From Escherichia phage AV108, in the sequence record OR352938.1: 64,000 nt of DNA. One strand, 5' to 3'. Positions 205-64,000 of the stretch are shown piece by piece. Numbering within the stretch: the first letter of the stretch is position 1; each line of letters starts with the position of its first letter. Position numbers and translations under genes: made by a program. The notes below the pieces were generated by a model. The model saw nothing but the letters and a program-made list of their open reading frames with translations, was not told the origin of the DNA and did no database searches.

Positions 205-234
205 ATTATAGGGGATCACCGATCCCCCTGTCAA
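205..234 (-). promoter_or_regulatory. sigma70-type early promoter (TTGACA-N18-TATAAT on minus strand)
   Basis: + strand attata at 205-210 and tgtcaa at 229-234; spacer is the palindrome GGGGGATCGGTGATCCCC with two GATC sites. Confidence 0.6.
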
Positions 235-241
235 CAATTTT

Positions 242-760
242 TTAGTTATTTTTTAATTGCTCATCTTGCAATAGGGCAATCACATGCTGGCGATGTTCTT
301 CCGATTGAGGCACACCGAAAAAGTTTGTTTTGTAGAAATACTCTAATCGGTCTTCTCGTGTGCTCTCTTCCATCATGATCGCGGGTAGTCCGAGATTTCG
401 GAAACGTCGCTTTTCTGCTGGCGTAAAATCACTGTAATACAACATAGAATCATCATTACAAGCAATGCTAAACTCATCCTTCATAAAGGAGAATATTGCG
501 TTTAAACGCTGTTTACCGTCCACGATTTCGATCTCATAGCGAGAGCCATCATCAATCTTAGCCATTGCGATAGCACCAACCGGAAAATCATTAATCAGGT
601 TTTCGATAAACATACGTTTGTTTTCGGTGTCCCATACTAAAGGACGCTGATAATCTGGGTTCATGTTGATATAGCCATCTTCTAACCATGCATCATAAAC
701 AGAGATGACAAAGTTTTTAGTATTGGTATAGTAACGGCGTTTAGGCGTTAAACGGTTCAT
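242..760 (-). CDS. DUF262/ParB-like nuclease-domain protein
   Basis: DGxQR-type motif (IVDGKQRLNAI); ORF track 242..796, likely start is the ATG at 758-760 (MNRLTPK) with AGGAGA RBS, abutting the upstream gene stop. Confidence 0.5.
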   Translation of the reverse strand: MNRLTPKRRYYTNTKNFVISVYDAWLEDGYINMNPDYQRPLVWDTENKRMFIENLINDFPVGAIAMAKIDDGSRYEIEIVDGKQRLNAIFSFMKDEFSIACNDDSMLYYSDFTPAEKRRFRNLGLPAIMMEESTREDRLEYFYKTNFFGVPQSEEHRQHVIALLQDEQLKNN

Positions 761-761
761 G

Positions 762-1094
762 TTATAGTCTCCTGAATGGATCATCACGTAAATCAATATC
801 TTTTAAGAACTCAACCCATGAATGCCGGATATTGTTCTTAATTCTCCAGATAAGCGCAGGGATTGAACGCTCTCCCATCTGGAAGTATGGATCATATGAT
901 CCGTATGCCCAATATGCTACTACAATTCCACAATCAGCGCAATAGTATTCTATTTCACTTGCTGGCGACCAAAGTCCATCAATATGATCGGTGATCTTGC
1001 TTTCGATGTTATGGCTATGACAATCAGGGCAACGGATGCAATGACCTTGTTTATCGTAATTTGACGTTAGCGAATACTTAAACAATCTCATCAT
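762..1094 (-). CDS. Cys/His-rich zinc-ribbon protein
   Basis: CxxC...CxxC pattern (CIRCPDC ... CADCG); start overlaps upstream stop (ATGA); function unknown. Confidence 0.5.
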   Translation of the reverse strand: MMRLFKYSLTSNYDKQGHCIRCPDCHSHNIESKITDHIDGLWSPASEIEYYCADCGIVVAYWAYGSYDPYFQMGERSIPALIWRIKNNIRHSWVEFLKDIDLRDDPFRRL

Positions 1095-1807
1095 AGATCC
1101 TTATTGGCTTCAAATACTGCCTTTGCGAATCCTCGCGGGGTAAGTGACCTTATAGTCTTTGTTTTCGTTCCTTTCCCGCCTAGCTTAGAATGCTGTTTAC
1201 TGTACCCTTTATTAATCTGCAACGGTTTCTTTTCTGGCATTATAAAGCCTTGTCCGGTCCATAAGCAAGTCTTTTTCGGGTACATATCACGGGCGGCGAT
1301 ATACTCAGGAAAAGTAGGATGTTTATCATCTTCCGGCAAATAACCGCCATATTCCCACGGATGGAACATGTAATCAGGCTTACGCCACATACTAGAGATA
1401 ACGCTTACAGGATTCTCTATCATGTAGGGAACTCCTAGCCATTCACCCAAATAAGCGGTTATTTTAGCTGCCCTTACATCATGAACTTGAATCAATGGTC
1501 CTTGTTCTAGTTTCTTTCGTTCAAAGTGCGCAGCGCCACTAACAGCTAAATTGGTGCACGGTGGGAATGCAAAGATAATATCCGGTTTCCCCCATTCAAG
1601 GTCCATTGCTCTTTCCAGCCAATTCAAATCAATCCATGTGTTTACATAGGTAATGTTTGGATGTTCAAATCTGGTATTATACTTTTTGTATGTACCGTGG
1701 TCGGCGTCATCCGCATTAAAGCAGACTACCTTATGACCTGCTTTAGCCCATTCTAGCCCCATTATCCCCGATCCGTCAAAGTTGCAGAATATTAATTTTT
1801 GTTTCAT
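1091..1807 (-). CDS. compact C5-cytosine methyltransferase-like protein
   Basis: motif I-like FDGSGIMG, motif IV-like FPPC, motif VI-like IENP, motif IX-like RSLTPR; only 238 aa with no obvious target-recognition domain. Confidence 0.5.
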   Translation of the reverse strand: MKQKLIFCNFDGSGIMGLEWAKAGHKVVCFNADDADHGTYKKYNTRFEHPNITYVNTWIDLNWLERAMDLEWGKPDIIFAFPPCTNLAVSGAAHFERKKLEQGPLIQVHDVRAAKITAYLGEWLGVPYMIENPVSVISSMWRKPDYMFHPWEYGGYLPEDDKHPTFPEYIAARDMYPKKTCLWTGQGFIMPEKKPLQINKGYSKQHSKLGGKGTKTKTIRSLTPRGFAKAVFEANKDL

Positions 1808-2337: not shown

Positions 2338-2366
2338 ATTGTAGGGGAGTTATCCTCCCCTGTCAA
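2338..2366 (-). promoter_or_regulatory. sigma70-type early promoter
   Basis: tgtcaa at 2361-2366 (TTGACA), TACAAT-like -10, 17-nt palindromic spacer GGGGAGGATAACTCCCC. Confidence 0.5.
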
Positions 2367-5864: not shown

Positions 5865-5893
5865 ATTATAGGGGATCGGTGATCCCCTGTCAA
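5865..5893 (-). promoter_or_regulatory. sigma70-type early promoter
   Basis: attata 5865-5870, tgtcaa 5888-5893, spacer palindrome GGGGATCACCGATCCCC. Confidence 0.6.
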
Positions 5894-10084: not shown

Positions 10085-10405
10085 TTATTTATAAATTTCG
10101 ACGATCTGCGCTGGAGTCAGCCCGTCCACATTAATCAGACTATCAAGCCCAAAACTACGGAAACCTTCAACTGCAATTTCATATACTGGCAAAGATGTTT
10201 CTGATTCTTTACGCGGTTTTTCAACATTCGGAACTAACCACTTTTCGTATGTTTCGAAAGGCATCAGTGCCGGATCTCGCGTGGCGATCATCTCGCGGAC
10301 AGTACCATCTTTCTTAGTAAACTGCAAAGAGTGAGTACCAACCGAAAACATTTTCTTTAGTGCTTCACGAAGTGCGATATTATCAATTTGTTCGGTCATT
10401 ATCAA
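10085..10405 (-). CDS. hypothetical protein
   Basis: 106-aa ORF between cd and 31. Confidence 0.45.
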   Translation of the reverse strand: MIMTEQIDNIALREALKKMFSVGTHSLQFTKKDGTVREMIATRDPALMPFETYEKWLVPNVEKPRKESETSLPVYEIAVEGFRSFGLDSLINVDGLTPAQIVEIYK

Positions 10406-10898
10406 TACCCTTCAAATCTGTCAATAATGCTTTTGGAATACGCGTGATCGTAATATCTGCATTATTCAGAATATCAGCCCAATCACGCCCACCATTTCGA
10501 TCATATGTGTCGCAATAGTATAGATATTTAATTCCACTGTTTGCAATTGCTTTAGCGCAATCTGGACACGGTGAAGCAGTACACCACATACTAGCGCCTT
10601 CAATCGATACACCGCTACGGGCAGCAAACAAAATAGCATTTAATTCAGCGTGGATCTCGTTTTTCTGTGACCATGCACTATGCTCTGGTCGTTTTTCTGG
10701 GATCATTTTGCCGTCATCATCCAGCCAACCGTTTTTATGTGCATGACAGCTACAATTTACTTGCCCTGCTGGAGTTCCGTTAAATCCAGTAGAAATGATT
10801 CGCCCGTCTTTTTCGATCAGTGCGCCTACCTTCCACGAAACACATTTAGAGTTCTTTGCGATCAGATAGGCGATCTGCATGTAAGTTTGTGACAACAT
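10383..10898 (-). CDS. cd: dCMP deaminase
   Basis: HAELNAI and SPCPDCAKAI zinc-binding deaminase motifs; collinear with T4 Cd as recalled. Confidence 0.85.
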   Translation of the reverse strand: MLSQTYMQIAYLIAKNSKCVSWKVGALIEKDGRIISTGFNGTPAGQVNCSCHAHKNGWLDDDGKMIPEKRPEHSAWSQKNEIHAELNAILFAARSGVSIEGASMWCTASPCPDCAKAIANSGIKYLYYCDTYDRNGGRDWADILNNADITITRIPKALLTDLKGIDNDRTN

Positions 10899-12817: not shown

Positions 12818-13987
12818 TTACCAATCAATCTTATCAGCCGGAATAAGTTTCTTATAATTCCGTAGATAGTAAGTTTTCATTGAATCCAGAATACGGTCAT
12901 AATCAAGACCATCAAATGCAATCATCAGACACATGAAAATATATGCTTGTGCATCACCATGTTTACGTGATTCGATAGTCGCATTGGATGCATATGTCTT
13001 TCTGTCTTCTCCCGCGTGTGCGTTATAAAATTCTGTTGCTGTCGTGAAGGCATTGCGAAGAATAGACCTGAATGCTTCCTCGAATAGCTCGATTCGTTCC
13101 AGTGCTTCCGGTTCGCCTTCATATGCAGCACGCAAATCATCGGTTTCGCTTTCTACGACATAGTAGATCAGGTTATTAGGAAACATCGATGTGTTTTTAA
13201 TGTTATGCACACCAATATACCATTCACTCTTCACTTTGAACATTTGACCGTCTTTAGTGCGTGCAACAATTCCTTCGATACCTTCTGCGGTCCGAACTTC
13301 ATCAAGAATATTGCTAAAACGCGCTGAATCAACCTGTAACGCATTTACCAGATGAGAACGTAGGATTGCGTCAGCAAATAGCATTTGATGCGGTACGTAC
13401 TCTCCTGTGACGTTATGGCGTACATTCAGAAGTGTTAGCGACGGTTCAGAATATTCTACAACAATTCGGTTGCTGGGCGCTGTATATTCAAAGTTGAAAG
13501 TATAATCAGACCCAATATCAGCAATCTTAGCGCGTAGATCCGCATACTTCTCTGAATACAGAAGACCGTTTGCTCTCTCTGCCTGGCTTGAGTACAAGGC
13601 CGCTTTAGACTTCAACTGAACATAGCCGTTATCAATGTAGGTGCTTACTAGACTACCGTCCATTTTGTCCATGACCATTTCCACATCTTCCGGCTTAAAG
13701 CGAGCGCGATCATTCTCGCCTAAATTAAAAAACTTCTCCATAGGACGAGATGCAATGCGGACCGGACGACCTTTATCGTCAATTTCAAACATGATCCCGC
13801 GACACTCTAACGCATCTGGTTTATTCCACATTTCCGGTTTGCTCAAGTACAGATAACTAAAAATGCGCATACGGGTTTGCATCGCCGTAATTTCATCTTT
13901 GTAATAGAACGTATCAGATCCGTCACATAGTGCCATCAGATTTTTGAACAATGCTAAAACTTTTTTGTTGTTTTCTTTTGTTGACAT
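12818..13987 (-). CDS. rnlA: RNA ligase 1
   Basis: near-identical blocks to T4 Rnl1 as recalled: PDALECRGIMFE, PVRIASRPMEKFFNL, FNFEYTAPSNRIV. Confidence 0.9.
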   Translation of the reverse strand: MSTKENNKKVLALFKNLMALCDGSDTFYYKDEITAMQTRMRIFSYLYLSKPEMWNKPDALECRGIMFEIDDKGRPVRIASRPMEKFFNLGENDRARFKPEDVEMVMDKMDGSLVSTYIDNGYVQLKSKAALYSSQAERANGLLYSEKYADLRAKIADIGSDYTFNFEYTAPSNRIVVEYSEPSLTLLNVRHNVTGEYVPHQMLFADAILRSHLVNALQVDSARFSNILDEVRTAEGIEGIVARTKDGQMFKVKSEWYIGVHNIKNTSMFPNNLIYYVVESETDDLRAAYEGEPEALERIELFEEAFRSILRNAFTTATEFYNAHAGEDRKTYASNATIESRKHGDAQAYIFMCLMIAFDGLDYDRILDSMKTYYLRNYKKLIPADKIDW

Positions 13988-14384
13988 AATTTGTGTTCCA
14001 TTCTGGTTTAAATTTGGTGATCAAAACAGGTTCTTCGATATCGGCAGTGCTTATAATATCCTTACCCGTTGGATTCTCGATGTACAACTCAAAGCACTGT
14101 CGGTAATAGAATGTTACTGTCTTACCTTCCTCTAGCGCCTTATGAATATTCTTACTCTTGCGAGTATCCGCTGTTGGTGTTTGTCTGTTAATGCTAGTCC
14201 GGTAATAATTGATCCGCTTTCTGAGATTGACAGTCTGACCAATGTATACCAGTTCATCATCAACAACAATAGCGTAAAGAACATTTAAACGGTTCTTCTG
14301 AGGCGGCAGAATCACATCACCATCTTTACACTCTAAACATGAATATTTAACGAATCCATAGTTTTCTATTAGCTCATTAATCAT
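13923..14384 (-). CDS. denA: GIY-YIG nuclease, endonuclease II-like
   Basis: VLYAIVV-N6-VYIGQT followed by RKR; size and position after nrdB fit T4 denA; gene symbol by position. Confidence 0.5.
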   Translation of the reverse strand: MINELIENYGFVKYSCLECKDGDVILPPQKNRLNVLYAIVVDDELVYIGQTVNLRKRINYYRTSINRQTPTADTRKSKNIHKALEEGKTVTFYYRQCFELYIENPTGKDIISTADIEEPVLITKFKPEWNTNYVNKRKQQKSFSIVQKSDGTM

Positions 14385-17078: not shown

Positions 17079-17753
17079 TCACATATTCCTCATTTTACAG
17101 TTATCAAAGTGCCATCGTAGAGCATTGCCTTTATTGGTAATTTTACCGCAATGCGGACAAGGATCTGCCACTGTTGCTTCCTTTGTCCTTTGTGCAATCA
17201 GCTTTATCATTTCCTCGCTATGTGGTATTCCTTTAGTTGGCGATGGTTTCCCAAACATAGGATTTTTACTTCCCATTCTAGCTTTTGAAATGTTTAACGC
17301 GTGCTCCTTTGTTTTTGGCTTACGCATTTTAGCTTTTGTCTCTTCTGATTTCAACACACCTTTCGAAGATTCGCTAATCTTTCTTCGCGTTTCTTCTTTC
17401 ATCGGCTTGCCCTTTCTTTGTTCAGAGATAAGTACCCTAGCTTGTTCATATACCCTAGACGAAACAATATAATCTCTTTTATTGGTCTTCGCATTTTTTG
17501 CTAAACACATCATACCAAATGCTTGTGCCATAGGTCCACCATGAATTTTTGCTAGCAGATGATGAATCACGAAATGTTCTTTTGCTGTCAAATCAATCAG
17601 GTTATCAACTTCATCACCGCCACCCATAGATCTCGGTAAAATATGATGTGTTTCCTTATATCCTTCAACGGTTCCTCTTATCTTTGCTTTTTCTATGATT
17701 GCGTCATGTAATTTTTGTAAGTTCATGAATAAATCCTCGTTTCTGTATACCAT
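17079..17753 (-). CDS. mobE: HNH homing endonuclease (MobE-like by position)
   Basis: HNH core THHILPRSMGGGDEVDNLIDLTAKEH; C-terminal basic repeats and CPHCG zinc knuckle; inserted between nrdA and nrdB exactly where T4 carries mobE. Confidence 0.6.
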   Translation of the reverse strand: MVYRNEDLFMNLQKLHDAIIEKAKIRGTVEGYKETHHILPRSMGGGDEVDNLIDLTAKEHFVIHHLLAKIHGGPMAQAFGMMCLAKNAKTNKRDYIVSSRVYEQARVLISEQRKGKPMKEETRRKISESSKGVLKSEETKAKMRKPKTKEHALNISKARMGSKNPMFGKPSPTKGIPHSEEMIKLIAQRTKEATVADPCPHCGKITNKGNALRWHFDNCKMRNM

Positions 17754-20344: not shown

Positions 20345-21577
20345 TTATACTGCCATTTGAGCGGTGATCGCTGGATGGCTTTGATAGTTGTGAATTTTAA
20401 AGTCTTTCGGAGTCTTTGTCAATACCTCATCTAAAGATTTAAATTCCGGCAACTCAATTGTTGGTTTATCAAACGGAACACGGCTTAACTGTTCCATAAC
20501 TTGATCAAAGTGGTTTTTGTAAATGTGAGTATCTCCACCAGAGAAAATCAGTTCTCCTACCTCAAGATCACACATTTTCGCTATGATGTGAGTTAACAGC
20601 GCATAGCTGGCAACATTAAAGGGCAAGCCCAAAAAGCTGTCTACGCTTCGCTGAAACCACATACAAGACAGTTTACCTTCATTGACGTAGAATTGCACGA
20701 AAGGATGACATACACCCAATACAGCATTATGTGTTCCTTGTACGTTCCATGAGTCAATAATGATCCGGCGATCCGTTGGATTGTTTTTAATTTGTTCAAT
20801 CACGTTTTGTAACTGGTCTTCCCAAATCTTCGGGCGATAGACATATTCTTCATCGTCTTTAGTGCTCGATGTGTCTACGTCCATACTAGCAAAGATCGTG
20901 GTATCTGGTGCTAAAATATCCCCACCCAGATAATCACTATCAAGTAGATAACCGAAATAACCATCATCTACCCATTCCTGGAATCCCCACAAGCAATATG
21001 CATCATTAACAAAATTAGATTGAGTCTTCCAGTGATCTGCTACTAAGAATTGATTATATTCAGAATCAAACTCTTCATAACGCATACCACGCCAGATAGC
21101 ACATAAACGGTCTTCTGTGTCGTTGGTTGGCGTAAAGTCTTCTACCCACGGGTGCTTAAATGTATGTGCATATTTGCTCTTAACGCGCTTAATTTTGATT
21201 TCACCGTGTGGATGAATCGGTTTGCGTCGCCATGCCATACCATACATATTGCCGACATTATAACCATTGAATCGCAAAGGATTCTTTTCTTTCATATCAA
21301 GACAGTTGCCGCGCCAAATGTCGAAGGCTTCTTCGTCAAACTTACCGCGTGTAATTTCCTGTAAGCGACGGCGGTCAAGTGATCCCTCCATAAACCATAG
21401 CAATTCGCCAATTACAGAGGCTGTAGCCATCTTTTTAGTGGTCAGTAATGGGAAACCCTTGCTTAAATCAATTCGCATCTCTGCGCCGAATTTAGAGAGC
21501 GTACCTACCCCCGTGCGGTCTTCACGAGGCCAGCCATTATCAAGAACATCACGCAACAGTTTCAAATATTCTTTCAT
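20345..21577 (-). CDS. td: thymidylate synthase with a large internal insertion
   Basis: TS motifs DRTGVGT, RRIIIDSWNV, CHPFVQFYV, GLPFNVASYALL, GGDTHIYKNH; about 115 extra residues between YGMAWR and EDQLQNV; continuous frame. Confidence 0.88.
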   Translation of the reverse strand: MKEYLKLLRDVLDNGWPREDRTGVGTLSKFGAEMRIDLSKGFPLLTTKKMATASVIGELLWFMEGSLDRRRLQEITRGKFDEEAFDIWRGNCLDMKEKNPLRFNGYNVGNMYGMAWRRKPIHPHGEIKIKRVKSKYAHTFKHPWVEDFTPTNDTEDRLCAIWRGMRYEEFDSEYNQFLVADHWKTQSNFVNDAYCLWGFQEWVDDGYFGYLLDSDYLGGDILAPDTTIFASMDVDTSSTKDDEEYVYRPKIWEDQLQNVIEQIKNNPTDRRIIIDSWNVQGTHNAVLGVCHPFVQFYVNEGKLSCMWFQRSVDSFLGLPFNVASYALLTHIIAKMCDLEVGELIFSGGDTHIYKNHFDQVMEQLSRVPFDKPTIELPEFKSLDEVLTKTPKDFKIHNYQSHPAITAQMAV

Positions 21578-21905: not shown

Positions 21906-22487
21906 TTACGCCTTCTTACGTTCTAAAATTTGTTCGCTGATCAGGTAATCATCAAGGAAGTAATTATGTTCTTCTTTTGTTGTAAAATCAAAATATAATT
22001 CCTGAATCATTTCCTTAGAGATGCCAACATCATATTCAAACGGATCATTAATTCCTGATCGTTGAACATACGTTAACACAATACGGTCCGCAAAGTCAAC
22101 TGCTTTTTCAATCAGGGAAGGTCCGCCAATAACGCTTACCAAACCTTGCAATTTCTCTATGACTTCTAATAATTCCTTCAATCCACCATCATTAGTAATC
22201 GCGGTATACACATCTGGTTGGTCGCCGTTTTTTGCTTTCGGTGCTGGCTTACTGGTATCGGTGCTAACAACCACATTCACACGACCTTCCAGTGCTTTAG
22301 GGAGACTTTCAAAGGTATTACGTCCCATTACAACCGCCGCAAGATCAACATCTCCCATAGTGCGCATTTTAAAGTTTTCCATGTCCTTTTTGATTGGACG
22401 TCCCCACGGTAAACCGCCTTTAAAACCAAAAGCCCAATTTTCATCTGACATTTTAGTGTCACCAATCGCAAATACACATTGAATCAT
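21906..22487 (-). CDS. frd: dihydrofolate reductase
   Basis: DHFR N-terminal pattern (FGxxGGLPWG) and frd-td-nrdA order as in T4. Confidence 0.85.
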   Translation of the reverse strand: MIQCVFAIGDTKMSDENWAFGFKGGLPWGRPIKKDMENFKMRTMGDVDLAAVVMGRNTFESLPKALEGRVNVVVSTDTSKPAPKAKNGDQPDVYTAITNDGGLKELLEVIEKLQGLVSVIGGPSLIEKAVDFADRIVLTYVQRSGINDPFEYDVGISKEMIQELYFDFTTKEEHNYFLDDYLISEQILERKKA

Positions 22488-56378: not shown

Positions 56379-56897
56379 TTAGTAGCCGCGTTCTTGACGG
56401 GCGAAGTTTTCAGCATTTTTCAGATAGTACAGCTTGAAGATATCCTTAGCGGTTAAACCTAAGCCCAGCATTTTAATCAGCACAAAATGCCAGATATCGA
56501 TCAATTCCATCACAATTTCGGTTTTATCGTCATCTGACAGATCAGCAAATTTACGCGCTCGTGCTTCGCCGTGGTTCTTCTTCCACACTTTAGTAATTGC
56601 GCTTGCATCTTTGCCATTTGACATGCCACCCAGGGCAACATAAAGTTCTCGTGTCTCGTCGTCGATTGCGTCATCCCACAACTTCATCCAGTCAAGGATC
56701 TCCCCGCAAGTTTCCAGCTTATCAGGATGCATTACCCACTCAAATTTATCAGCTAGTGCGACCTGTAATCCTTTTTGCATATCTAACATTACTTGCAGCG
56801 GATCTTTACCGCTAGTGATTGCCTCGGAATACGCAATACCAGCTTTAGACATAGTTTCATCATTAACAAGACCAGCACAAGAATTAAATTCACTCAT
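56379..56897 (-). CDS. 56: dCTP pyrophosphatase-like all-alpha NTP pyrophosphohydrolase
   Basis: MazG-like ELIDIWHFVL helix, about 172 aa from ATG 56895-56897 with GAGAGG RBS; position next to 61 as T4 gene 56; ORF track to 56960. Confidence 0.6.
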   Translation of the reverse strand: MSEFNSCAGLVNDETMSKAGIAYSEAITSGKDPLQVMLDMQKGLQVALADKFEWVMHPDKLETCGEILDWMKLWDDAIDDETRELYVALGGMSNGKDASAITKVWKKNHGEARARKFADLSDDDKTEIVMELIDIWHFVLIKMLGLGLTAKDIFKLYYLKNAENFARQERGY

Positions 56898-56907
56898 AAT
56901 AAACCTC

Positions 56908-57471
56908 TCAAATAACATTAAACACTGCAAATTCACCGTGATACTTATACGCATAGTCATTATATACTATTGCGGCGTCTATTTCTAGGTCAAATTGTCC
57001 TATATAGACTTTATTTCCTTCATTGTCCCTTATCTGGGCGACCCATTTACCCGAACGACTATTATAATGCACTCCTTTAAAATTGCTAGTTTTAGTTTGG
57101 TTGTTTCTTCTCATATTTTGGGTATTCTGTTTTTGTGTCGCCTCTCTTAAGTTTGGAGGATCGTTGTTCTCTGGATTCCCGTCAATATGGTCAATGACAG
57201 GTGGGCAATACCCATGCTCTAAGAAGAATACTATTCTATGCACAAGCTCAAAATATTGTTTTCCTTCAAAAGAAAATGAGACTTTTAGGTGTCCGGCTGT
57301 GACTTTAGATACCTTTACTATATCACCAACCTTATAAAACTGGCCTTCTTTCGTCGTTCGGCTTGCTTTGCTGTTTGTTTTATGAATCAATATACCCCTT
57401 TCGTGTCTATATCTTCGACGTATTTCATCCTTTAATTCATCGCTCCATTCTTTGGCTTTCCTTACCCTCAC
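56908..57471 (-). CDS. HNH endonuclease with AP2 DNA-binding domain
   Basis: HNH core VHRIVFFLEHGYCPPVIDHIDGNPENN ... NLREATQKQN; AP2-like FKGVHYNSRSGKWVAQI ... YIGQFD ... AAIVYNDYA. Confidence 0.65.
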   Translation of the reverse strand: MRVRKAKEWSDELKDEIRRRYRHERGILIHKTNSKASRTTKEGQFYKVGDIVKVSKVTAGHLKVSFSFEGKQYFELVHRIVFFLEHGYCPPVIDHIDGNPENNDPPNLREATQKQNTQNMRRNNQTKTSNFKGVHYNSRSGKWVAQIRDNEGNKVYIGQFDLEIDAAIVYNDYAYKYHGEFAVFNVI

Positions 57472-57488
57472 AATACAACCCTCATTAA

Positions 57489-58517
57489 TTAAAATTTACA
57501 ATATTTCATAAACCGCATTTTAGCCATCAGACCTTGTACGGTGTTCTCTTTGATATATTCCATGATCTGGTCGCGTGTAGCGCCCTCGTCCTGAATCATG
57601 GCGTTAACGTCTTTAGAATGCCACGGGCAACGATCCCACAATACAATCTTTTCCCCTGCATTGATAAACTTTTCCAGTCGGTGCATTGTATCGGCAGACC
57701 GTGGTTCCGCATCAAGTACAAACACTCGCTGGTCTGGGAAAGGGATTTCATCTAATCCCAAAGTACCGCCAGTAATTGCACACCCGTTATCAATAAACAA
57801 TGAATCGATCGGACCTTCTAAGAAATACACTGGTTTACTCGGATCGGCGCGTTCAAGACCATAGACCTTACTCGCTAACTCGTGAGTTTTAATCGTCATA
57901 TATTTGGTCTTTCCGTAATCCTTTCTCAATGCTCGCCCCTGAATGGATTCTATCTTGTTCTCGCGGTTAAAGATAGGAATCACTAAACGCGGTTCAGGTT
58001 GTGGATTCTTGAAAGTATCCGCCTTAATGTGATTTGCTACCTTTTGCCATTCTCTCGTGAAATACAGAAGATCCCATTTATCGTGAGGAATACAGCGATC
58101 ACTGACATACTTTATTATAGGATGATTAGCCGGAAGAGTATCTAATCTCTCGCAGAAAGGCAATGTTTGCACTTTCTTAATCTCCGGCTTTTCTACCTTT
58201 TTCAGTGGCTTGAACGTGGTGTTCTTGTGGTCGCCTTGTTCCTTCCGTCGTTCCATAAGCCATTCCCTGAATAGGTCCGGCTTATACTGTTTGAGAAATT
58301 CACCTAACGGCTGATTGTAGTTACAGTTGAAACAGCCGCAACGCAAACTATCCTTATAGGTATAGATACGGAATCGCGCCATTGTGCTATTCTTTTTGGA
58401 ATCTCCGCAGATCGGACAACTTGCTACTAACGTAAATGAGTTAGTATGTAACCGCTTGAAATTTCGTTCGCCGTATATGGCTTTTTCCGCTATTTCATAA
58501 TCTGCGTAGTAAATCAT
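57489..58517 (-). CDS. 61: DNA primase
   Basis: 342 aa as T4 gp61; zinc ribbon CPICGDS ... CGCFNCNY and TOPRIM-like region. Confidence 0.85.
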   Translation of the reverse strand: MIYYADYEIAEKAIYGERNFKRLHTNSFTLVASCPICGDSKKNSTMARFRIYTYKDSLRCGCFNCNYNQPLGEFLKQYKPDLFREWLMERRKEQGDHKNTTFKPLKKVEKPEIKKVQTLPFCERLDTLPANHPIIKYVSDRCIPHDKWDLLYFTREWQKVANHIKADTFKNPQPEPRLVIPIFNRENKIESIQGRALRKDYGKTKYMTIKTHELASKVYGLERADPSKPVYFLEGPIDSLFIDNGCAITGGTLGLDEIPFPDQRVFVLDAEPRSADTMHRLEKFINAGEKIVLWDRCPWHSKDVNAMIQDEGATRDQIMEYIKENTVQGLMAKMRFMKYCKF

Positions 58518-60144: not shown

Positions 60145-61557
60145 TTAGAAAGTCATGTTATTTGCTAGCTCGTCGAGTTTTTCTCGTTTCTCGGCTTGCT
60201 GTGCGCTTTGTGGTTTAACTTGTGCATTCTCCTGATCTGCGATCTGGTTTGGTACTTCATACCAACGCTGATTGCCTTTCTTCACACCAACGTTAAACCG
60301 TGAATAATAGTTCTTGTCACCGTAACGAGACTTGATCTGCTTCATGAGTTGGACGCCCATTTTAGCCAGGTCTTCGGTTTCGATAACACCCAACATAAAG
60401 TCGGCAGTAGCCGGAAGACCTGCTGATTCAGCGGTATCACTCATGTTAAGGTCGGAAGCATCCCAACCCGCGCGGGTAGTCTGTGCCGCAGTCCAACCAA
60501 CAACATCCCACTTAACAAAAAATCCTCGCAGTTCTTCCGCAATCGCCTTAACTAGTGTGTAACTATTTTCAGAGTATACACGCAAGCGAGACGATGCGCA
60601 AATCCCCAGATAGTCAACAATCACAACATCAGGTTTAAACTGTTTCTTGAGTCGCAATTCATTCATTAACGCCTCAAAGTGATTGGAGTTCGCGCCACCA
60701 GTCGGATACTGCTTGATCATCAATTTTCCAACCGGACGATCTCCGATCTTCTTATTCTTAACACGCTTCATGCGTGCGGAATATTCCGCAAAAGAAACAT
60801 TACCATTATCCAATTCATCTAATGTAATGTCAAGCAAGTTTGCGTCGATACGTTTTGCTACTACATGCTCCGCCATCTCCATTGAGATATACAATACATC
60901 ATAACCACATTCCATATAATCCGCAGCAAGAGAACACAAGCCAAGCGATTTACCAACGTTTACACCAGCAAGCAACACATTTAGCGTTTTTCTTTCCGCC
61001 CCTCCTTTCGTGATTTTATTCAACATCGGCAGCTTAAACGGGATCTTATTCGCCTTAGTCTGATATAGCAAGAATCGTTTTTCAAAGTCATTAAACCAGT
61101 CATGACCTACATCAGAATCAAACGTAATGGATAGTGCTTCCTGCATGATCTCAGGAATAGCACCCTCACTCGGCAATTTCTTATTCTGTTTCTCTTTTGG
61201 TAGTTGTGCGTTCGCCTGAATCTCTAGCGCCCGTGACATTGCATTATACATAGCGCGGTCACGAATAAATTTTTCGGTTTCCTTCATTAACCAATCAAGG
61301 TCTTCCGGTGTATTCTCCAGCGAATCGAGAAGAGTTTTCGCCCCTTCATATGTTGTCTGATTTCCTCTCTCCTTGTCTAAAGCAATCTGTAATGCAGTTG
61401 GCGTAGGAATATTGGAATATTCGTCTACGTGCTTTTTAATCAGCTTATAAATCAGTTTTTCTTCGTCTTCGGTGAAGTAGTCCGCTTTAAGGTGAGGCCA
61501 TACATTCGTAAAGAATGCGCCATTGTAAATCAACTGTGAAAAGATAGTTTTAATCAT
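60145..61557 (-). CDS. 41: replicative DNA helicase (DnaB-like)
   Basis: long identical blocks to T4 gp41 as recalled (VPFKL, LNKITKGGAE, LNVLLAGVNVGKSLGLCSLAADY, VLYISMEMAE, ESAGLPATADFML, SRYGDKN). Confidence 0.92.
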   Translation of the reverse strand: MIKTIFSQLIYNGAFFTNVWPHLKADYFTEDEEKLIYKLIKKHVDEYSNIPTPTALQIALDKERGNQTTYEGAKTLLDSLENTPEDLDWLMKETEKFIRDRAMYNAMSRALEIQANAQLPKEKQNKKLPSEGAIPEIMQEALSITFDSDVGHDWFNDFEKRFLLYQTKANKIPFKLPMLNKITKGGAERKTLNVLLAGVNVGKSLGLCSLAADYMECGYDVLYISMEMAEHVVAKRIDANLLDITLDELDNGNVSFAEYSARMKRVKNKKIGDRPVGKLMIKQYPTGGANSNHFEALMNELRLKKQFKPDVVIVDYLGICASSRLRVYSENSYTLVKAIAEELRGFFVKWDVVGWTAAQTTRAGWDASDLNMSDTAESAGLPATADFMLGVIETEDLAKMGVQLMKQIKSRYGDKNYYSRFNVGVKKGNQRWYEVPNQIADQENAQVKPQSAQQAEKREKLDELANNMTF

Positions 61558-61871
61558 ACATAGCCCCCAACTACACGCATAACAAAGGTCTTGAGTTTAT
61601 ACCAGAAAGTTTCTTTTTTCAACTTTTCTTCTGCTTCTTTGATCTGCGCGGTTAACGCCTTAATGACGTGTGGATATACCACATCACGATCTGACGGCGT
61701 GGAGTAGTCGACCACAATACCTTTAGTGTCTGGATCGTATTCAACATTATGAATATAGACAATATGATGCTCTCCCTCTTCATCAACAATTATCAATTCC
61801 TGAATAACTGTCTTCATTGCTTCTTGAATCAAGCTGTGTGCTTCTTCTAAACTTGTTGGTTTCTTATCCAT
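61554..61871 (-). CDS. hypothetical protein at the gene 40 position
   Basis: 105-aa ORF between uvsX and 41; assignment by position only. Confidence 0.4.
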   Translation of the reverse strand: MDKKPTSLEEAHSLIQEAMKTVIQELIIVDEEGEHHIVYIHNVEYDPDTKGIVVDYSTPSDRDVVYPHVIKALTAQIKEAEEKLKKETFWYKLKTFVMRVVGGYV

Positions 61872-61926: not shown

Positions 61927-62997
61927 TTATGCTAACATATCTTCGATTTCTTTGTCAACTGCTTCGTCGCTGATCACTTGCCCCAGCTTATAATGATCGT
62001 TGATTGCTTCGTTAAACTTATCGTTTGTCAGAAGTGGTTTCCAGAACTCAATGCTATTGGTTTCTTTAGCACGGAACTTGCGTTCTTCGGTTTCCATCTC
62101 TCCGGTCTCGGTATTCAGGATTGAACGAGAATACCAGCCGTTTGACGGTTTCACTACCCAGCCTAACTCTACAGCCAACTCCAGCAAACCGGAATAAGGA
62201 TCGATGCCACCGCTAAATGTTACGCTAATCGGGAACTTAGATTTTTCTTTAACGGTTCGTGATTTTTCCGCATTCAGGATAAAATCATAACCAGTAATTT
62301 CGGTTCCTTCTTTCTGCTGACGACGACCAATAATGAAAACTTCATTGGCTGAATACATCGCGCCAGTACCGCCGGACATAACGGTCTTACTAAACATTTC
62401 TTGCGTTTCGTAAGTGTGGTTAATAGCGATGCACGGGATATCATTCATAGTCAGATACGGCGTAACCATACGGAACAAGCCTTTAAGTGCTTTCGCTCGC
62501 GTCATATCCTGTGCGGATTTCTCATTAATCGCGTCTTCAACTTCTTTTTTACTTGCTAAGTTACCGATTGAGTCAATAAAGATGATCACTTTATCTTCAC
62601 GGGTAATTTGCTCAAGCTGGTTCATGATTTCAAATTTAAGTTCTTCGATGTTCTTGATTGGAACATGCACCACGCGATCAGGATCTACACCCATAGATTC
62701 CAGATATGCGGAAGTAATGCCAAACTCAGAATCAAAGAACAAGCACGCCGCATCAGGATTCTGTTTCATGTATGAACTAACACAAGTTAATCCCATGTTT
62801 GATTTAAAGTGCTTAGATGGACCAGCAAAGAAAATCAGACCAGATTGAAAGCCTTTTTTAAGATCACCTGAAAACGCAATATTCAGCATCGGGATCTTAG
62901 TGCGAGTATTTGTTTTTTCGTTAAAGAAGCTGGATTTAGACAGTACCGCAGTAGTTTTCAGGGTAGAGTTCTTTTTCAGTTTTTCCAGTACAGACAT
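61927..62997 (-). CDS. uvsX: UvsX recombinase (RecA-like)
   Basis: collinear with T4 UvsX as recalled (RTKIPMLNIAFSG, GPSKHFKSN, CIAINHTYETQEMFSKTVM, KSRTVKEKSKF). Confidence 0.9.
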   Translation of the reverse strand: MSVLEKLKKNSTLKTTAVLSKSSFFNEKTNTRTKIPMLNIAFSGDLKKGFQSGLIFFAGPSKHFKSNMGLTCVSSYMKQNPDAACLFFDSEFGITSAYLESMGVDPDRVVHVPIKNIEELKFEIMNQLEQITREDKVIIFIDSIGNLASKKEVEDAINEKSAQDMTRAKALKGLFRMVTPYLTMNDIPCIAINHTYETQEMFSKTVMSGGTGAMYSANEVFIIGRRQQKEGTEITGYDFILNAEKSRTVKEKSKFPISVTFSGGIDPYSGLLELAVELGWVVKPSNGWYSRSILNTETGEMETEERKFRAKETNSIEFWKPLLTNDKFNEAINDHYKLGQVISDEAVDKEIEDMLA

Positions 62998-63008
62998 TAT
63001 TAATACCT

Positions 63009-63236
63009 CTATTCAGTTAATCCGTAATACTTTAATTGCTTCATTGTTATTCGATCTTTGTAGTGCTCTTGAATTAACTTTTTCATCGCATCAACATCGA
63101 TCGTCACAAATACTTCGTTGCTGTGATTTCCGTGAACTTTCTTGAAATGCTCTATGCCTTCCTCACGTTCACGTTTAATCTTTTCAATGTCTCTCATAGT
63201 ATATTTCTCACGTTGGCGGGTATCGTCACCCAACAC
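63009..63236 (-). CDS. hypothetical protein
   Basis: 75-aa ORF, the only gene between 43 and uvsX; hairpin GGCGGGT-N13-ACCCGCC at 63215-63241. Confidence 0.4.
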   Translation of the reverse strand: MLGDDTRQREKYTMRDIEKIKREREEGIEHFKKVHGNHSNEVFVTIDVDAMKKLIQEHYKDRITMKQLKYYGLTE

Positions 63237-63258
63237 CCGCCATTATACACACTTTATC

Positions 63259-64000
63259 TTAAATGTCAAACAGGTCAGTCAGAGAAGCAACTTTTTCATA
63301 TTGCAGCTTTGCAGCCGTGGTAATGTTCTCCAGTGGTTTGACGAAAGTCTTATTAAACAACAAAGGCCAGTCTAACCACTTTAACACCTCTGATTCAATT
63401 TCTGGTGGAATACGAGTACCAGACAACCAACCAAAACAGATTTCTCCAAACGGATTTCGATCTTTAAGCGGTACAATCATAACCTTCTCGCCTTCACGAA
63501 TCGGATCTAGTCCGAATTTTCGAGCATTACGATTATAACACAATACACTCTTAACCGCATACGGACAACCCTTAATCGGATACCCGTTTGAATCGCTGTA
63601 TTTCTGTAGGTTGTTTGCAGATGATACCGCAGCAACCTCAAGATAGTCAAGTTTTCTAAACTCTTGCTCAAAAATACCGTAGTATTCCTGCAATGACTCT
63701 TCCCCTTCCTGCAACATACGGCGAATACATTCTTTCAGTGATTTCTGACATGCTTTAGGGGTAGAGCTACGTTGCGTTTCCAATCCCATGATTTTTAGCT
63801 TAGGTTCAGCAAAGCGCGTTCCTTCCATATCCCAAACATTAAGAGCATAGCGTTTTTTACCCGTCCAGAATCCACCGATACCCGCAGATTTCAACGGAGG
63901 ACCAGCAATTGCCTCACGGTCCATAAACATCAAGTGCTCGTAGTTGTTCATGTACTCGCATAACTCGCGATATCCCTTGTCGATAATAGGTTCCATTCGA
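63259..64000 (-). CDS. 43: DNA polymerase, C-terminal part (5' end outside the window)
   Basis: matches the recalled T4 gp43 C-terminus (GIGGFWTGKKRYALNVWDMEGTR, AEPKLKIMGLETQ, NPFGE) ending in a clamp-binding-type tail KVASLTDLFDI. Confidence 0.85.
   Translation of the reverse strand, partial: RMEPIIDKGYRELCEYMNNYEHLMFMDREAIAGPPLKSAGIGGFWTGKKRYALNVWDMEGTRFAEPKLKIMGLETQRSSTPKACQKSLKECIRRMLQEGEESLQEYYGIFEQEFRKLDYLEVAAVSSANNLQKYSDSNGYPIKGCPYAVKSVLCYNRNARKFGLDPIREGEKVMIVPLKDRNPFGEICFGWLSGTRIPPEIESEVLKWLDWPLLFNKTFVKPLENITTAAKLQYEKVASLTDLFDI

Follow-up and report, generated by a model that had tools for sequence, protein, structure and literature searches.

We hold with high confidence that the Krischvirus phage analysed here joins gene 43 and uvsX at a compact junction, lacks the hydroxymethylcytosine (hmC) module of T4 genome-wide rather than carrying it relocated, uses ordinary cytosine, and has retained a general nucleotide module. 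The missing module would comprise gp42, the glucosyltransferases, Alc, DenB and Arn, and the gene block would be missing because these phages use ordinary cytosine. Gene content, synteny, the Td residues and restriction-site avoidance come from the present analysis, and the canonical cytosine of RB49 and TB34 is taken from the literature.

The window, by which we mean the whole 64-kb stretch of DNA analysed out of a genome of ∼164 kb, matched 58 phage records at 90–99% identity, all of them RB49-like (Krischvirus) where taxonomy was shown and including RB49, Phi1, JSE, GEC-3S, ECD7 and Cognac. Cognac and RB49 aligned with the window at 94–99% identity across most of the 64 kb, bar a few mobile or variable segments, and the gene order of the window agrees with the Phi1 annotation. 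By sequence, with matches to Krischvirus genomes at 97–99%, the source of the window is assigned to Krischvirus, as a ‘pseudo-T-even’ coliphage of the RB49/Phi1/JSE type and a relative of T4. Genome-wide absence of a gene was read from the closest complete relatives (94–99% identical). Segments of the window that are missing from both Cognac and RB49 include, for example, homing endonucleases and an ORF with a CapR domain.

All genes around the junction lie on the minus strand of the ORF list, namely gene 61 (57489..58517), followed after several small ORFs by gene 41 (60145..61557) and gene 40 (61554..61871), then uvsX (61927..62997), which encodes a RecA-like recombinase recognised by tblastn against T4 UvsX and by the uvsX annotation of the relatives, and the 3′ part of gene 43 (63259..64000), which encodes the C-terminal part of the DNA polymerase, runs off the window end and is annotated as gene 43 at the matching position in Phi1, RB49 and Cognac. 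The gap from the gene 43 stop (63259) to the uvsX start (62997) measures 261 bp and contains a perfect σ70 promoter, followed by a strong stem-loop, and a single small gene. A single small ORF in this interval had been described in the initial annotation, and indeed the only minus-strand ORF of at least 30 aa in the gap is that at 63009..63236, with 75 aa when read from a GTG. The junction is kept in 58 of 58 Krischvirus genomes in the database, and the copy in the window is 100% identical to that of Cognac. No material difference was found at the 43–ORF025–uvsX locus of RB49, Phi1 and JSE, which has the same order, the 62-aa ORF and the early promoter (annotated as such in RB49).

The T4 record gives the order 43–imm.1–imm–42–b-gt–segA–uvsX–40–41, in agreement with the T4 map from which the comparison had started, with imm, gene 42 and the beta-glucosyltransferase gene between 43 and uvsX. 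Although the flanking genes 43, uvsX, 40 and 41 are orthologous in T4 and the window and share order and orientation (UvsX being 64% identical), the T4 interval spans ∼3.6 kb and carries five accessory genes, including those of dCMP hydroxymethylase and beta-glucosyltransferase, whereas here 261 bp hold a single unrelated gene of 62 aa. No homologues of the five T4 interval genes (imm.1, imm, 42, beta-gt and segA) were detected in the Krischvirus sequences searched.

The predicted early σ70 promoter of the junction (TTGACA–16 nt–TATAAT, 63242..63269, minus strand) matched the consensus at 12 of 12 positions in the promoter scan, its −35 hexamer reaching into the final codons of gene 43. In the RB49 record, the corresponding −35 and −10 carry the label ‘hypothetical early promoter’, and neither hexamer varies among seven genomes. 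Directly after the −10, at the 5′ end of the predicted ORF025–uvsX transcript, RNA folding placed a stem-loop (63214..63242, minus strand) with the 12-pair core GGCGGGUGUUGG, loop GUGAC and CGAUACCCGCC, whose folding energy of −22.2 kcal/mol (z −4.8) was equalled by 0 of 200 shuffled sequences and whose sequence is identical across the seven genomes. A role of this stem-loop as the gene 43 terminator was considered and rejected; since no U-run lies 3′ of it and it was not called in the terminator scan, we treat it as a 5′-UTR structure. A promoter-early stem-loop (PeSL) has been described in RB49 and Phi1, in which a near-perfect σ70 promoter and a stem-loop of G-run, loop and C-run precede an accessory ORF. 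The junction combines a perfect promoter with a G-rich/C-rich stem-loop, but here the stem-loop is downstream of the −10; at 234..205, 2366..2338 and 5893..5865 the window has further such elements, in which the stem-loop falls within the −35/−10 spacer.

The small gene behind this promoter, ORF025, is the homologue of RB49p025 and Phi1 ORF025 (phi1p025), and is read here as a 62-aa protein from the ATG start of the RB49 and Phi1 annotations (63009..63197, minus strand). Because the GTG at 63236 sits inside the stem-loop and both RB49 and Phi1 are annotated from the ATG, the 62-aa reading is preferred, and the 75-aa extension is probably not translated. A purine-rich stretch lies 5′ of the ATG at 63197 and 3′ of the stem-loop, and we read it as a weak ribosome-binding site. 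ORF025 was assigned to PHROG 12120 (E 4e-42) and is present in 58 of 58 Krischvirus records with 97–100% nucleotide identity, and all five sites that vary among seven genomes fall at third codon positions, three being synonymous and two conservative Asp/Glu swaps. Taking PHROG membership, conservation in 58 genomes and third-position-only variation together, we regard ORF025 as a real gene. It would probably encode a genus-specific early host-takeover or accessory protein that is co-transcribed with uvsX–40–41.

The opposite reading, that the small ORF arose by chance and that the interval is simply a regulatory spacer, could appeal to the shortness of ORF025 and to its isolation. Among 5.8 billion proteins, its relatives form only four protein clusters, each at least 94% identical, with no homologue outside Krischvirus; no Pfam match was obtained with either the 62-aa or the 75-aa form; and the charged, predicted helical protein gave only low-confidence helices in single-sequence AlphaFold2 (pLDDT 66, pTM 0.32). 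Retention in every one of the 58 genomes, the confinement of variation to third codon positions, and an ATG preceded by a purine-rich stretch behind a dedicated promoter all speak against a chance ORF, which we consider highly unlikely.

The genes of hmC synthesis and glucosylation were then sought beyond the junction by tblastn with T4 proteins from the T4 record against the window, the complete genome of Cognac as the closest relative, and the complete genome of RB49. No significant match in these three sequences was obtained for gp42, alpha-gt, beta-gt, Alc, DenB, Arn, Ndd, IpI, Imm or Imm.1; the glucosyltransferases had no match below E = 1, DenB had none at E up to 10, and the best Alc match reached E 0.6. 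All controls were found in the same searches, i.e. gp56 (51% identity), DenA (49%), Cd (56%), Frd (36%), gp1 (36%), Dam (46%), UvsX (64%) and Td. In addition, a Pfam scan covered ∼60 of the larger unnamed ORFs, taken from Cognac and from the window-specific set. Among these ∼60, neither a glycosyltransferase nor a second thymidylate-synthase-like protein, TET/JBP protein or Pfam-recognisable C5-methylase was recognised, and ∼18 matched no Pfam family.

The sole weak match of gp42 (E 0.015) was the td homologue (20345..21577, minus strand, 410 aa), the only gene of the thymidylate synthase family, which matches PF00303 in two stretches at E 1e-84 and with 284 bits against a cut-off of 24. This protein shares 46–48% identity with T4 Td and E. 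coli ThyA versus 24% with gp42, and it keeps both the catalytic Cys (VCHPF) and the dUMP-specifying Asn of GLPFNVASY, a position where gp42 reads RND in the alignment and which we take to be E. coli N177 in our own numbering. On this Asn/Cys signature and the identity pattern, the possibility that the td homologue is a disguised gp42 was rejected, and the gene reads as that of a true dUMP-type thymidylate synthase with no hidden hydroxymethylase. Td also carries an insertion of ∼130 aa, for which the insert alone had no Pfam match at E up to 10. It was not read as an intein, inspection having revealed no His-Asn-Cys/Ser/Thr junction.

The initial annotation had proposed that the modification genes might sit elsewhere in the genome, and neither the tblastn searches of the window, Cognac and RB49 nor the Pfam scan of ∼60 ORFs produced a candidate in support of this. 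One could still argue that gene 42 and the glucosyltransferase genes are present in this particular isolate within the ∼100 kb outside the window, given that T4-like genomes are mosaic, that 64 kb was sampled, and that the window has segments missing from Cognac and RB49. However, two complete close relatives have no hmC genes and the literature reports none in the whole genus; Alc and DenB, the companions of hmC in T4, are missing as well by tblastn in the window, Cognac and RB49; and the window itself displays the restriction-site avoidance typical of unmodified DNA, with 12 of 36 C-containing palindromes eliminated. Such an isolate-specific location is thus given almost no credence, and genome-wide absence is retained as our reading.

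In contrast to the missing block, genes that serve hmC DNA in T4 have been kept. The gene 56-like ORF noticed in the initial annotation (56379..56897, minus strand) proved to be a homologue of T4 gene 56, predicted to encode an all-alpha NTP pyrophosphohydrolase (dCTPase-dUTPase in T4) with 51% identity to T4 gp56 over the full length of 172 aa (E 3e-61), a Pfam dUTPase_2 match and membership in PHROG 173. The denA-like ORF (13923..14384, minus strand), which would encode the GIY-YIG endonuclease II, was borne out likewise, with 50% identity to T4 DenA (E 1e-47) and assignment to PHROG 1111, the Pfam GIY-YIG match (E 1.5e-4) falling just under the family cut-off. Further along the minus strand lie cd for dCMP deaminase (10383..10898; 56% identity to T4 Cd, Pfam dCMP_cyt_deam_1) and frd for dihydrofolate reductase (21906..22487; 36% identity to T4 Frd, Pfam DHFR_1), and an orthologue of gp1, the dNMP kinase, with 36% identity is encoded in Cognac and RB49 at a place outside the window. 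Genes 56, denA, cd, td and frd together with gene 1 would constitute a general module for nucleotide supply and host-DNA breakdown, in which gp56 would supply dUMP and remove dUTP, Cd and Td would lead on to dTMP with Frd acting in the same dTMP line, and DenA would nick the host DNA. Such a gp56/Cd/Td/Frd supply line to dTMP should need no hmC.

By established T4 genetics, replication would fail in a phage that broke down its dCTP while lacking gp42. Because such a phage cannot afford this loss, Krischvirus gp56 is predicted to leave dCTP intact in vivo and to work mainly as a dUTPase or under regulation. The acidic motifs DDExRE and ELxDIxHF, which we take as metal-binding, are common to the Krischvirus and T4 proteins, and a PDB sequence search with gp56 returned no relevant structure on which specificity residues could be mapped. 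A useful comparison is T4GT7, an engineered T4 with cytosine DNA whose genotype comprises 42am, 56am, a deletion of the rIIB–denB region and alc, denA not being among the listed mutations. T4GT7 and Krischvirus are alike in having no gp42, no DenB and no Alc while keeping DenA, but T4GT7 needs gene 56 inactivated whereas Krischvirus keeps an intact gp56 orthologue. An intact gp56 in a cytosine-DNA phage would therefore imply a shifted specificity or regulation. Since the T4GT7 genotype lists no denA mutation, DenA appears compatible with a cytosine genome and, by analogy, would be tolerable on the cytosine DNA of Krischvirus. The paradox implicit in the initial annotation, namely the retention of 56 and denA in a phage that has no 42, is real, and it has already been described for RB49-type phages.

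Hypermodification of every cytosine makes a phage insensitive to most type II restriction enzymes, whereas unmodified DNA places it under selection against the sites of these enzymes. By comparing observed with expected counts (O/E), we found that the 6-bp palindromes containing C are depleted to 0.58 in the window, 0.61 in Cognac and 0.62 in RB49, versus 0.93 in T4, and that the palindromes of A and T only stand at 0.87–0.89 in Krischvirus versus 0.94 in T4. The depletion is extreme at individual sites: GAATTC occurs 0 times against 46 expected in the complete Cognac genome but 56 against 56 in T4, and AAGCTT 0 against 39 in Cognac but 72 against 76 in T4, and complete Cognac has one GGATCC for 36 expected and no TCCGGA (65 expected), CTGCAG (13), GGTACC (22) or CCATGG (21). 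Among the C-containing palindromes with at least eight occurrences expected, 40% are nearly eliminated, versus 0.4% of the non-palindromic hexamers and 0% in T4; in the window alone, 12 of the 36 C-containing palindromes are eliminated. Concomitantly, the O/E of CCWGG and CCSGG is ∼0.4 in Krischvirus versus ∼1.1 in T4. Because C-containing palindromes are so strongly depleted, unlike in T4, the lineage has evolved with restriction-sensitive, unmodified DNA. Such near-total loss of many type II sites could be used to predict the cytosine status of a phage from its sequence alone.

The literature leads to the same reading. Table 4 of Petrov et al. 2010 lists the RB49 type without 42, denB and alc and with 56 and denA. 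Yaung et al. 2014 found RB49 without the hydroxymethylase and beta-gt, and RB49 DNA to be cut by HpaII and NheI. A study in Front Microbiol 2021 assigned to the RB49 and RB43 groups only the homologues of DenA and dCTPase-dUTPase, with no base-synthesis genes, and the same absence is stated for Krischvirus in a 2025 review. A 2026 paper from Durham determined TB34 DNA to be canonical by HPLC-MS and reported Krischvirus to be without homologues of the hmdCMP synthase or glucosyltransferase. As to the alternative suggested in the initial annotation, namely a different cytosine chemistry, it stands in so far as the base is ordinary cytosine, judging by the RB49/TB34 digests and HPLC-MS together with site avoidance, and falls in so far as an exotic base was meant. 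Ordinary cytosine in the RB49 group has been known for >20 years and, as the literature already documents both the absence of the hmC genes and the retention of 56 and denA, the present finding is a correct rediscovery.

One report dissents from this picture. In the 2026 paper, the Krischvirus SAP is described as containing hmdC and alpha-gentiobiosyl-mdC and as BrxU-sensitive, while TB34, 99.96% identical to it, has canonical DNA; its authors found no genes responsible for the SAP modification. A pairwise comparison of the two genomes showed that 66 bases differ and that SAP has one 83-bp intergenic tandem duplication. About 42 of the differences are single-base changes of homopolymer length, 14 have CC[T]GG in place of CC[C]GG, or the complementary swap (CCWGG for CCSGG), eight are single-base insertions within GGTCTA/TAGACC, and two or three are of other kinds. 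When 24 non-homopolymer sites were checked, Cognac, RB49, Phi1 or the window agreed with SAP at most of the locatable ones, and the TB34 record contains many split genes. The differences are thus assembly artefacts of TB34, and the two genomes are effectively identical, so that no difference in modification can be traced to their sequences. Moreover, seven T6-like Tequatrovirus phages from the same collection have the very profile of SAP (∼1/3 hmdC and 2/3 alpha-gentiobiosyl-mdC), and we read this match as a sign that the lysate behind the SAP chemistry was probably mixed or mislabelled.

If the report is instead taken at face value, Krischvirus, or some isolates of it, would make hmC or glucosyl-hmC by enzymes unrelated to gp42 and to the known DNA glycosyltransferases, and the lack of the 42/beta-gt block would in that case point to a pathway yet to be discovered, not to plain cytosine. 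HPLC-MS and BrxU sensitivity have indeed been reported for SAP, and many Krischvirus ORFs have no recognisable domain. Such a cryptic pathway is nevertheless difficult to reconcile with the effective identity of SAP to the canonical-cytosine TB34, with a base profile equal to that of the T6-like phages of its own collection, with the strong site avoidance of the lineage that hypermodified T4 does not have, and with the cutting of RB49 DNA by HpaII and NheI, so that we judge it very improbable and keep to ordinary cytosine. Given the site-loss signature and the SAP/TB34 identity, the published claim of a hypermodified Krischvirus merits re-examination before a hunt for a new pathway.

Ordinary cytosine in bulk would be compatible with methylation at a few sites, and the window offers a single candidate for an enzyme that modifies cytosine, a putative minimal C5-cytosine-methyltransferase-like protein of 238 aa (1091..1807, minus strand), proposed from its motif cores and structural model. 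UniRef and NCBI give the large family to which it belongs the name cytosine-5 DNA methyltransferase, and a cytosine-methyltransferase homologue has been noted for the RB49 and RB43 groups (Front Microbiol 2021). The core residues of its FDGSG, FPPCT, IENP and RSLTPRG motifs (FxGSG, PPCT, ENP and RSLxxRG) are invariant in 26 homologues, and its AlphaFold2 model is confident (pLDDT 91), with the catalytic domains of DNMT3A, DNMT3B and DNMT1 as the best PDB folds at E 1e-6, the TM-scores being only 0.45–0.51. The protein itself had no match in Pfam and NCBIfam; NCBIfam likewise gave no match for a GmrSD_N-like ORF. A methyltransferase of the NPPF type is encoded between genes 8 and 9.

Given this gene, limited and site-specific cytosine methylation is possible: the bulk cytosine would be canonical, with a few cytosines methylated by the putative enzyme at 1091..1807. 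Its conserved motif cores, the confident model with its DNMT-like best matches and the naming of its family all favour such a scenario, as does the TB34 assembly, in which 14 of 32 CCSGG sites are miscalled as CCWGG, a type of error that base methylation causes. Together with miscalls at 8 of 51 GGTCTA sites, these errors resemble methylation-induced basecalling errors and hint that the enzyme at 1091..1807 and the NPPF-type methyltransferase could methylate specific sites, but they could also reflect basecaller bias. Also to be set against it are the missing Pfam/NCBIfam match and modest TM-scores, the 238-aa length, into which no clear target-recognition domain fits, the avoidance of CCSGG itself (O/E 0.4), which is at odds with a protected site, and the HPLC-MS of TB34, which detected no modified base, although 64 of ∼33,000 cytosines might escape detection. 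We therefore regard site-specific methylation as a tentative and rather doubtful addition to canonical bulk cytosine. The Krischvirus pattern of DenA and dCTPase-dUTPase homologues, absent base-synthesis genes, a cytosine-methylase homologue and generalised transduction is also reported for the RB43-type phages (Pseudotevenvirus); these belong to a different genus, and their methylase, RB43ORF127c, is full-length by its match to the Pfam C-5 DNA methylase family (E 1e-117), in contrast to the minimal 238-aa form found here.

Restriction-site avoidance was found to be strong throughout the window and in three relatives, namely Cognac (L005 and L010-L012), the closest complete relative, RB49 (L006-L009) and SAP (L014-L017). 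Many C-containing 6-bp palindromes (GAATTC, AAGCTT, GGATCC, TCCGGA, CTGCAG, GGTACC, CCATGG, AGCGCT and CAGCTG) are missing, and the same holds for sites that are not palindromes, among them CTGAAG (0 versus 16 expected in the window), which we take to be the Eco57I/AcuI site, and also ACTGGG and RCCGGY. No avoidance is seen for GATC and GGTCTA. T4 differs in lacking such avoidance, with the exception of GATC (129 versus 389 expected).

The window encodes a predicted minimal C5-cytosine-methyltransferase-like protein of 238 aa (1091..1807, minus strand) with conserved FxGSG, PPC, ENP and RSLxxRG motif cores; its family is very large, with phage and prophage members, and the catalytic domains of DNMT3A, DNMT3B and DNMT1 are its top structural matches. 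Beyond the window, Cognac has a gene between genes 8 and 9, in its late structural region, for an amino-methyltransferase of 279 aa (L010:27797-28636, plus strand) with an NPPF motif and Pfam MTS, Eco57I and N6_Mtase matches, whose RB49 counterpart is annotated as ‘putative methyltransferase’ (NP_891714); a phage Dam is present as well. By comparing TB34 (OX001802.1, L018-L021) with SAP (OZ034687.1, L014-L017), we observed systematic errors in the published TB34 assembly, i.e. homopolymer deletions, CCSGG read as CCWGG at 14 of 32 sites, and insertions in 8 of 51 GGTCTA sites. Many TB34 genes (nrdB, frd, topoisomerase large subunit, gene 43, uvsX, uvsW and others) are split because of these errors, and the motif-specific ones may be due to the phage DNA being methylated at particular sites.

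Adjoining the C5-methyltransferase-like gene is a gene (242..796, minus strand) whose product matches GmrSD_N in Pfam (E 7e-20) and shares with the GmrSD type IV restriction enzymes only their N-terminal DUF262 domain, accompanied by a small zinc-ribbon ORF (762..1094, minus strand); speculatively, the GmrSD_N protein might target the modified DNA of competing T-even phages. An 83-bp duplication lies directly 3′ of this gene in SAP.

Free-standing homing-endonuclease genes occupy variable positions. In the window, genes 56 and 61 are separated by an HNH_3+AP2 ORF (56908..57471, minus strand), whereas Cognac has an ORF of the same size (187 aa) beyond gene 61, on its opposite flank, and in SAP and TB34 gene 61 has one such ORF on each flank. 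Likewise, a NUMOD3 ORF adjoins nrdB in the window (17079..17753, minus strand) but not in Cognac and RB49. Gene 43 of Cognac is interrupted by an inserted segment with a 274-aa ORF (L005:16373-20165), and a gene-43 intron has been reported in JSE; gene 43 is uninterrupted in Phi1, RB49 and SAP, and the window stops short of the split point seen in Cognac.

In the thymidylate synthase (20345..21577, minus strand), roughly 130 extra residues (about 125-253) are inserted in frame into a surface loop leading from the YG.QWR motif to the next conserved helix; neither a Pfam match nor intein-like junctions were found for this insertion, which is kept in Cognac, RB49, SAP and TB34. Three RB49-type PeSL elements (234..205, 2366..2338 and 5893..5865, all minus strand) combine a G-run/loop/C-run hairpin with a consensus promoter, the hairpin sitting within the −35/−10 spacer (for example TTGACAGGGGGATCGGTGATCCCCTATAAT), whereas that of the ORF025 promoter, which precedes the 62-aa gene between gene 43 and uvsX, lies downstream of the −10.
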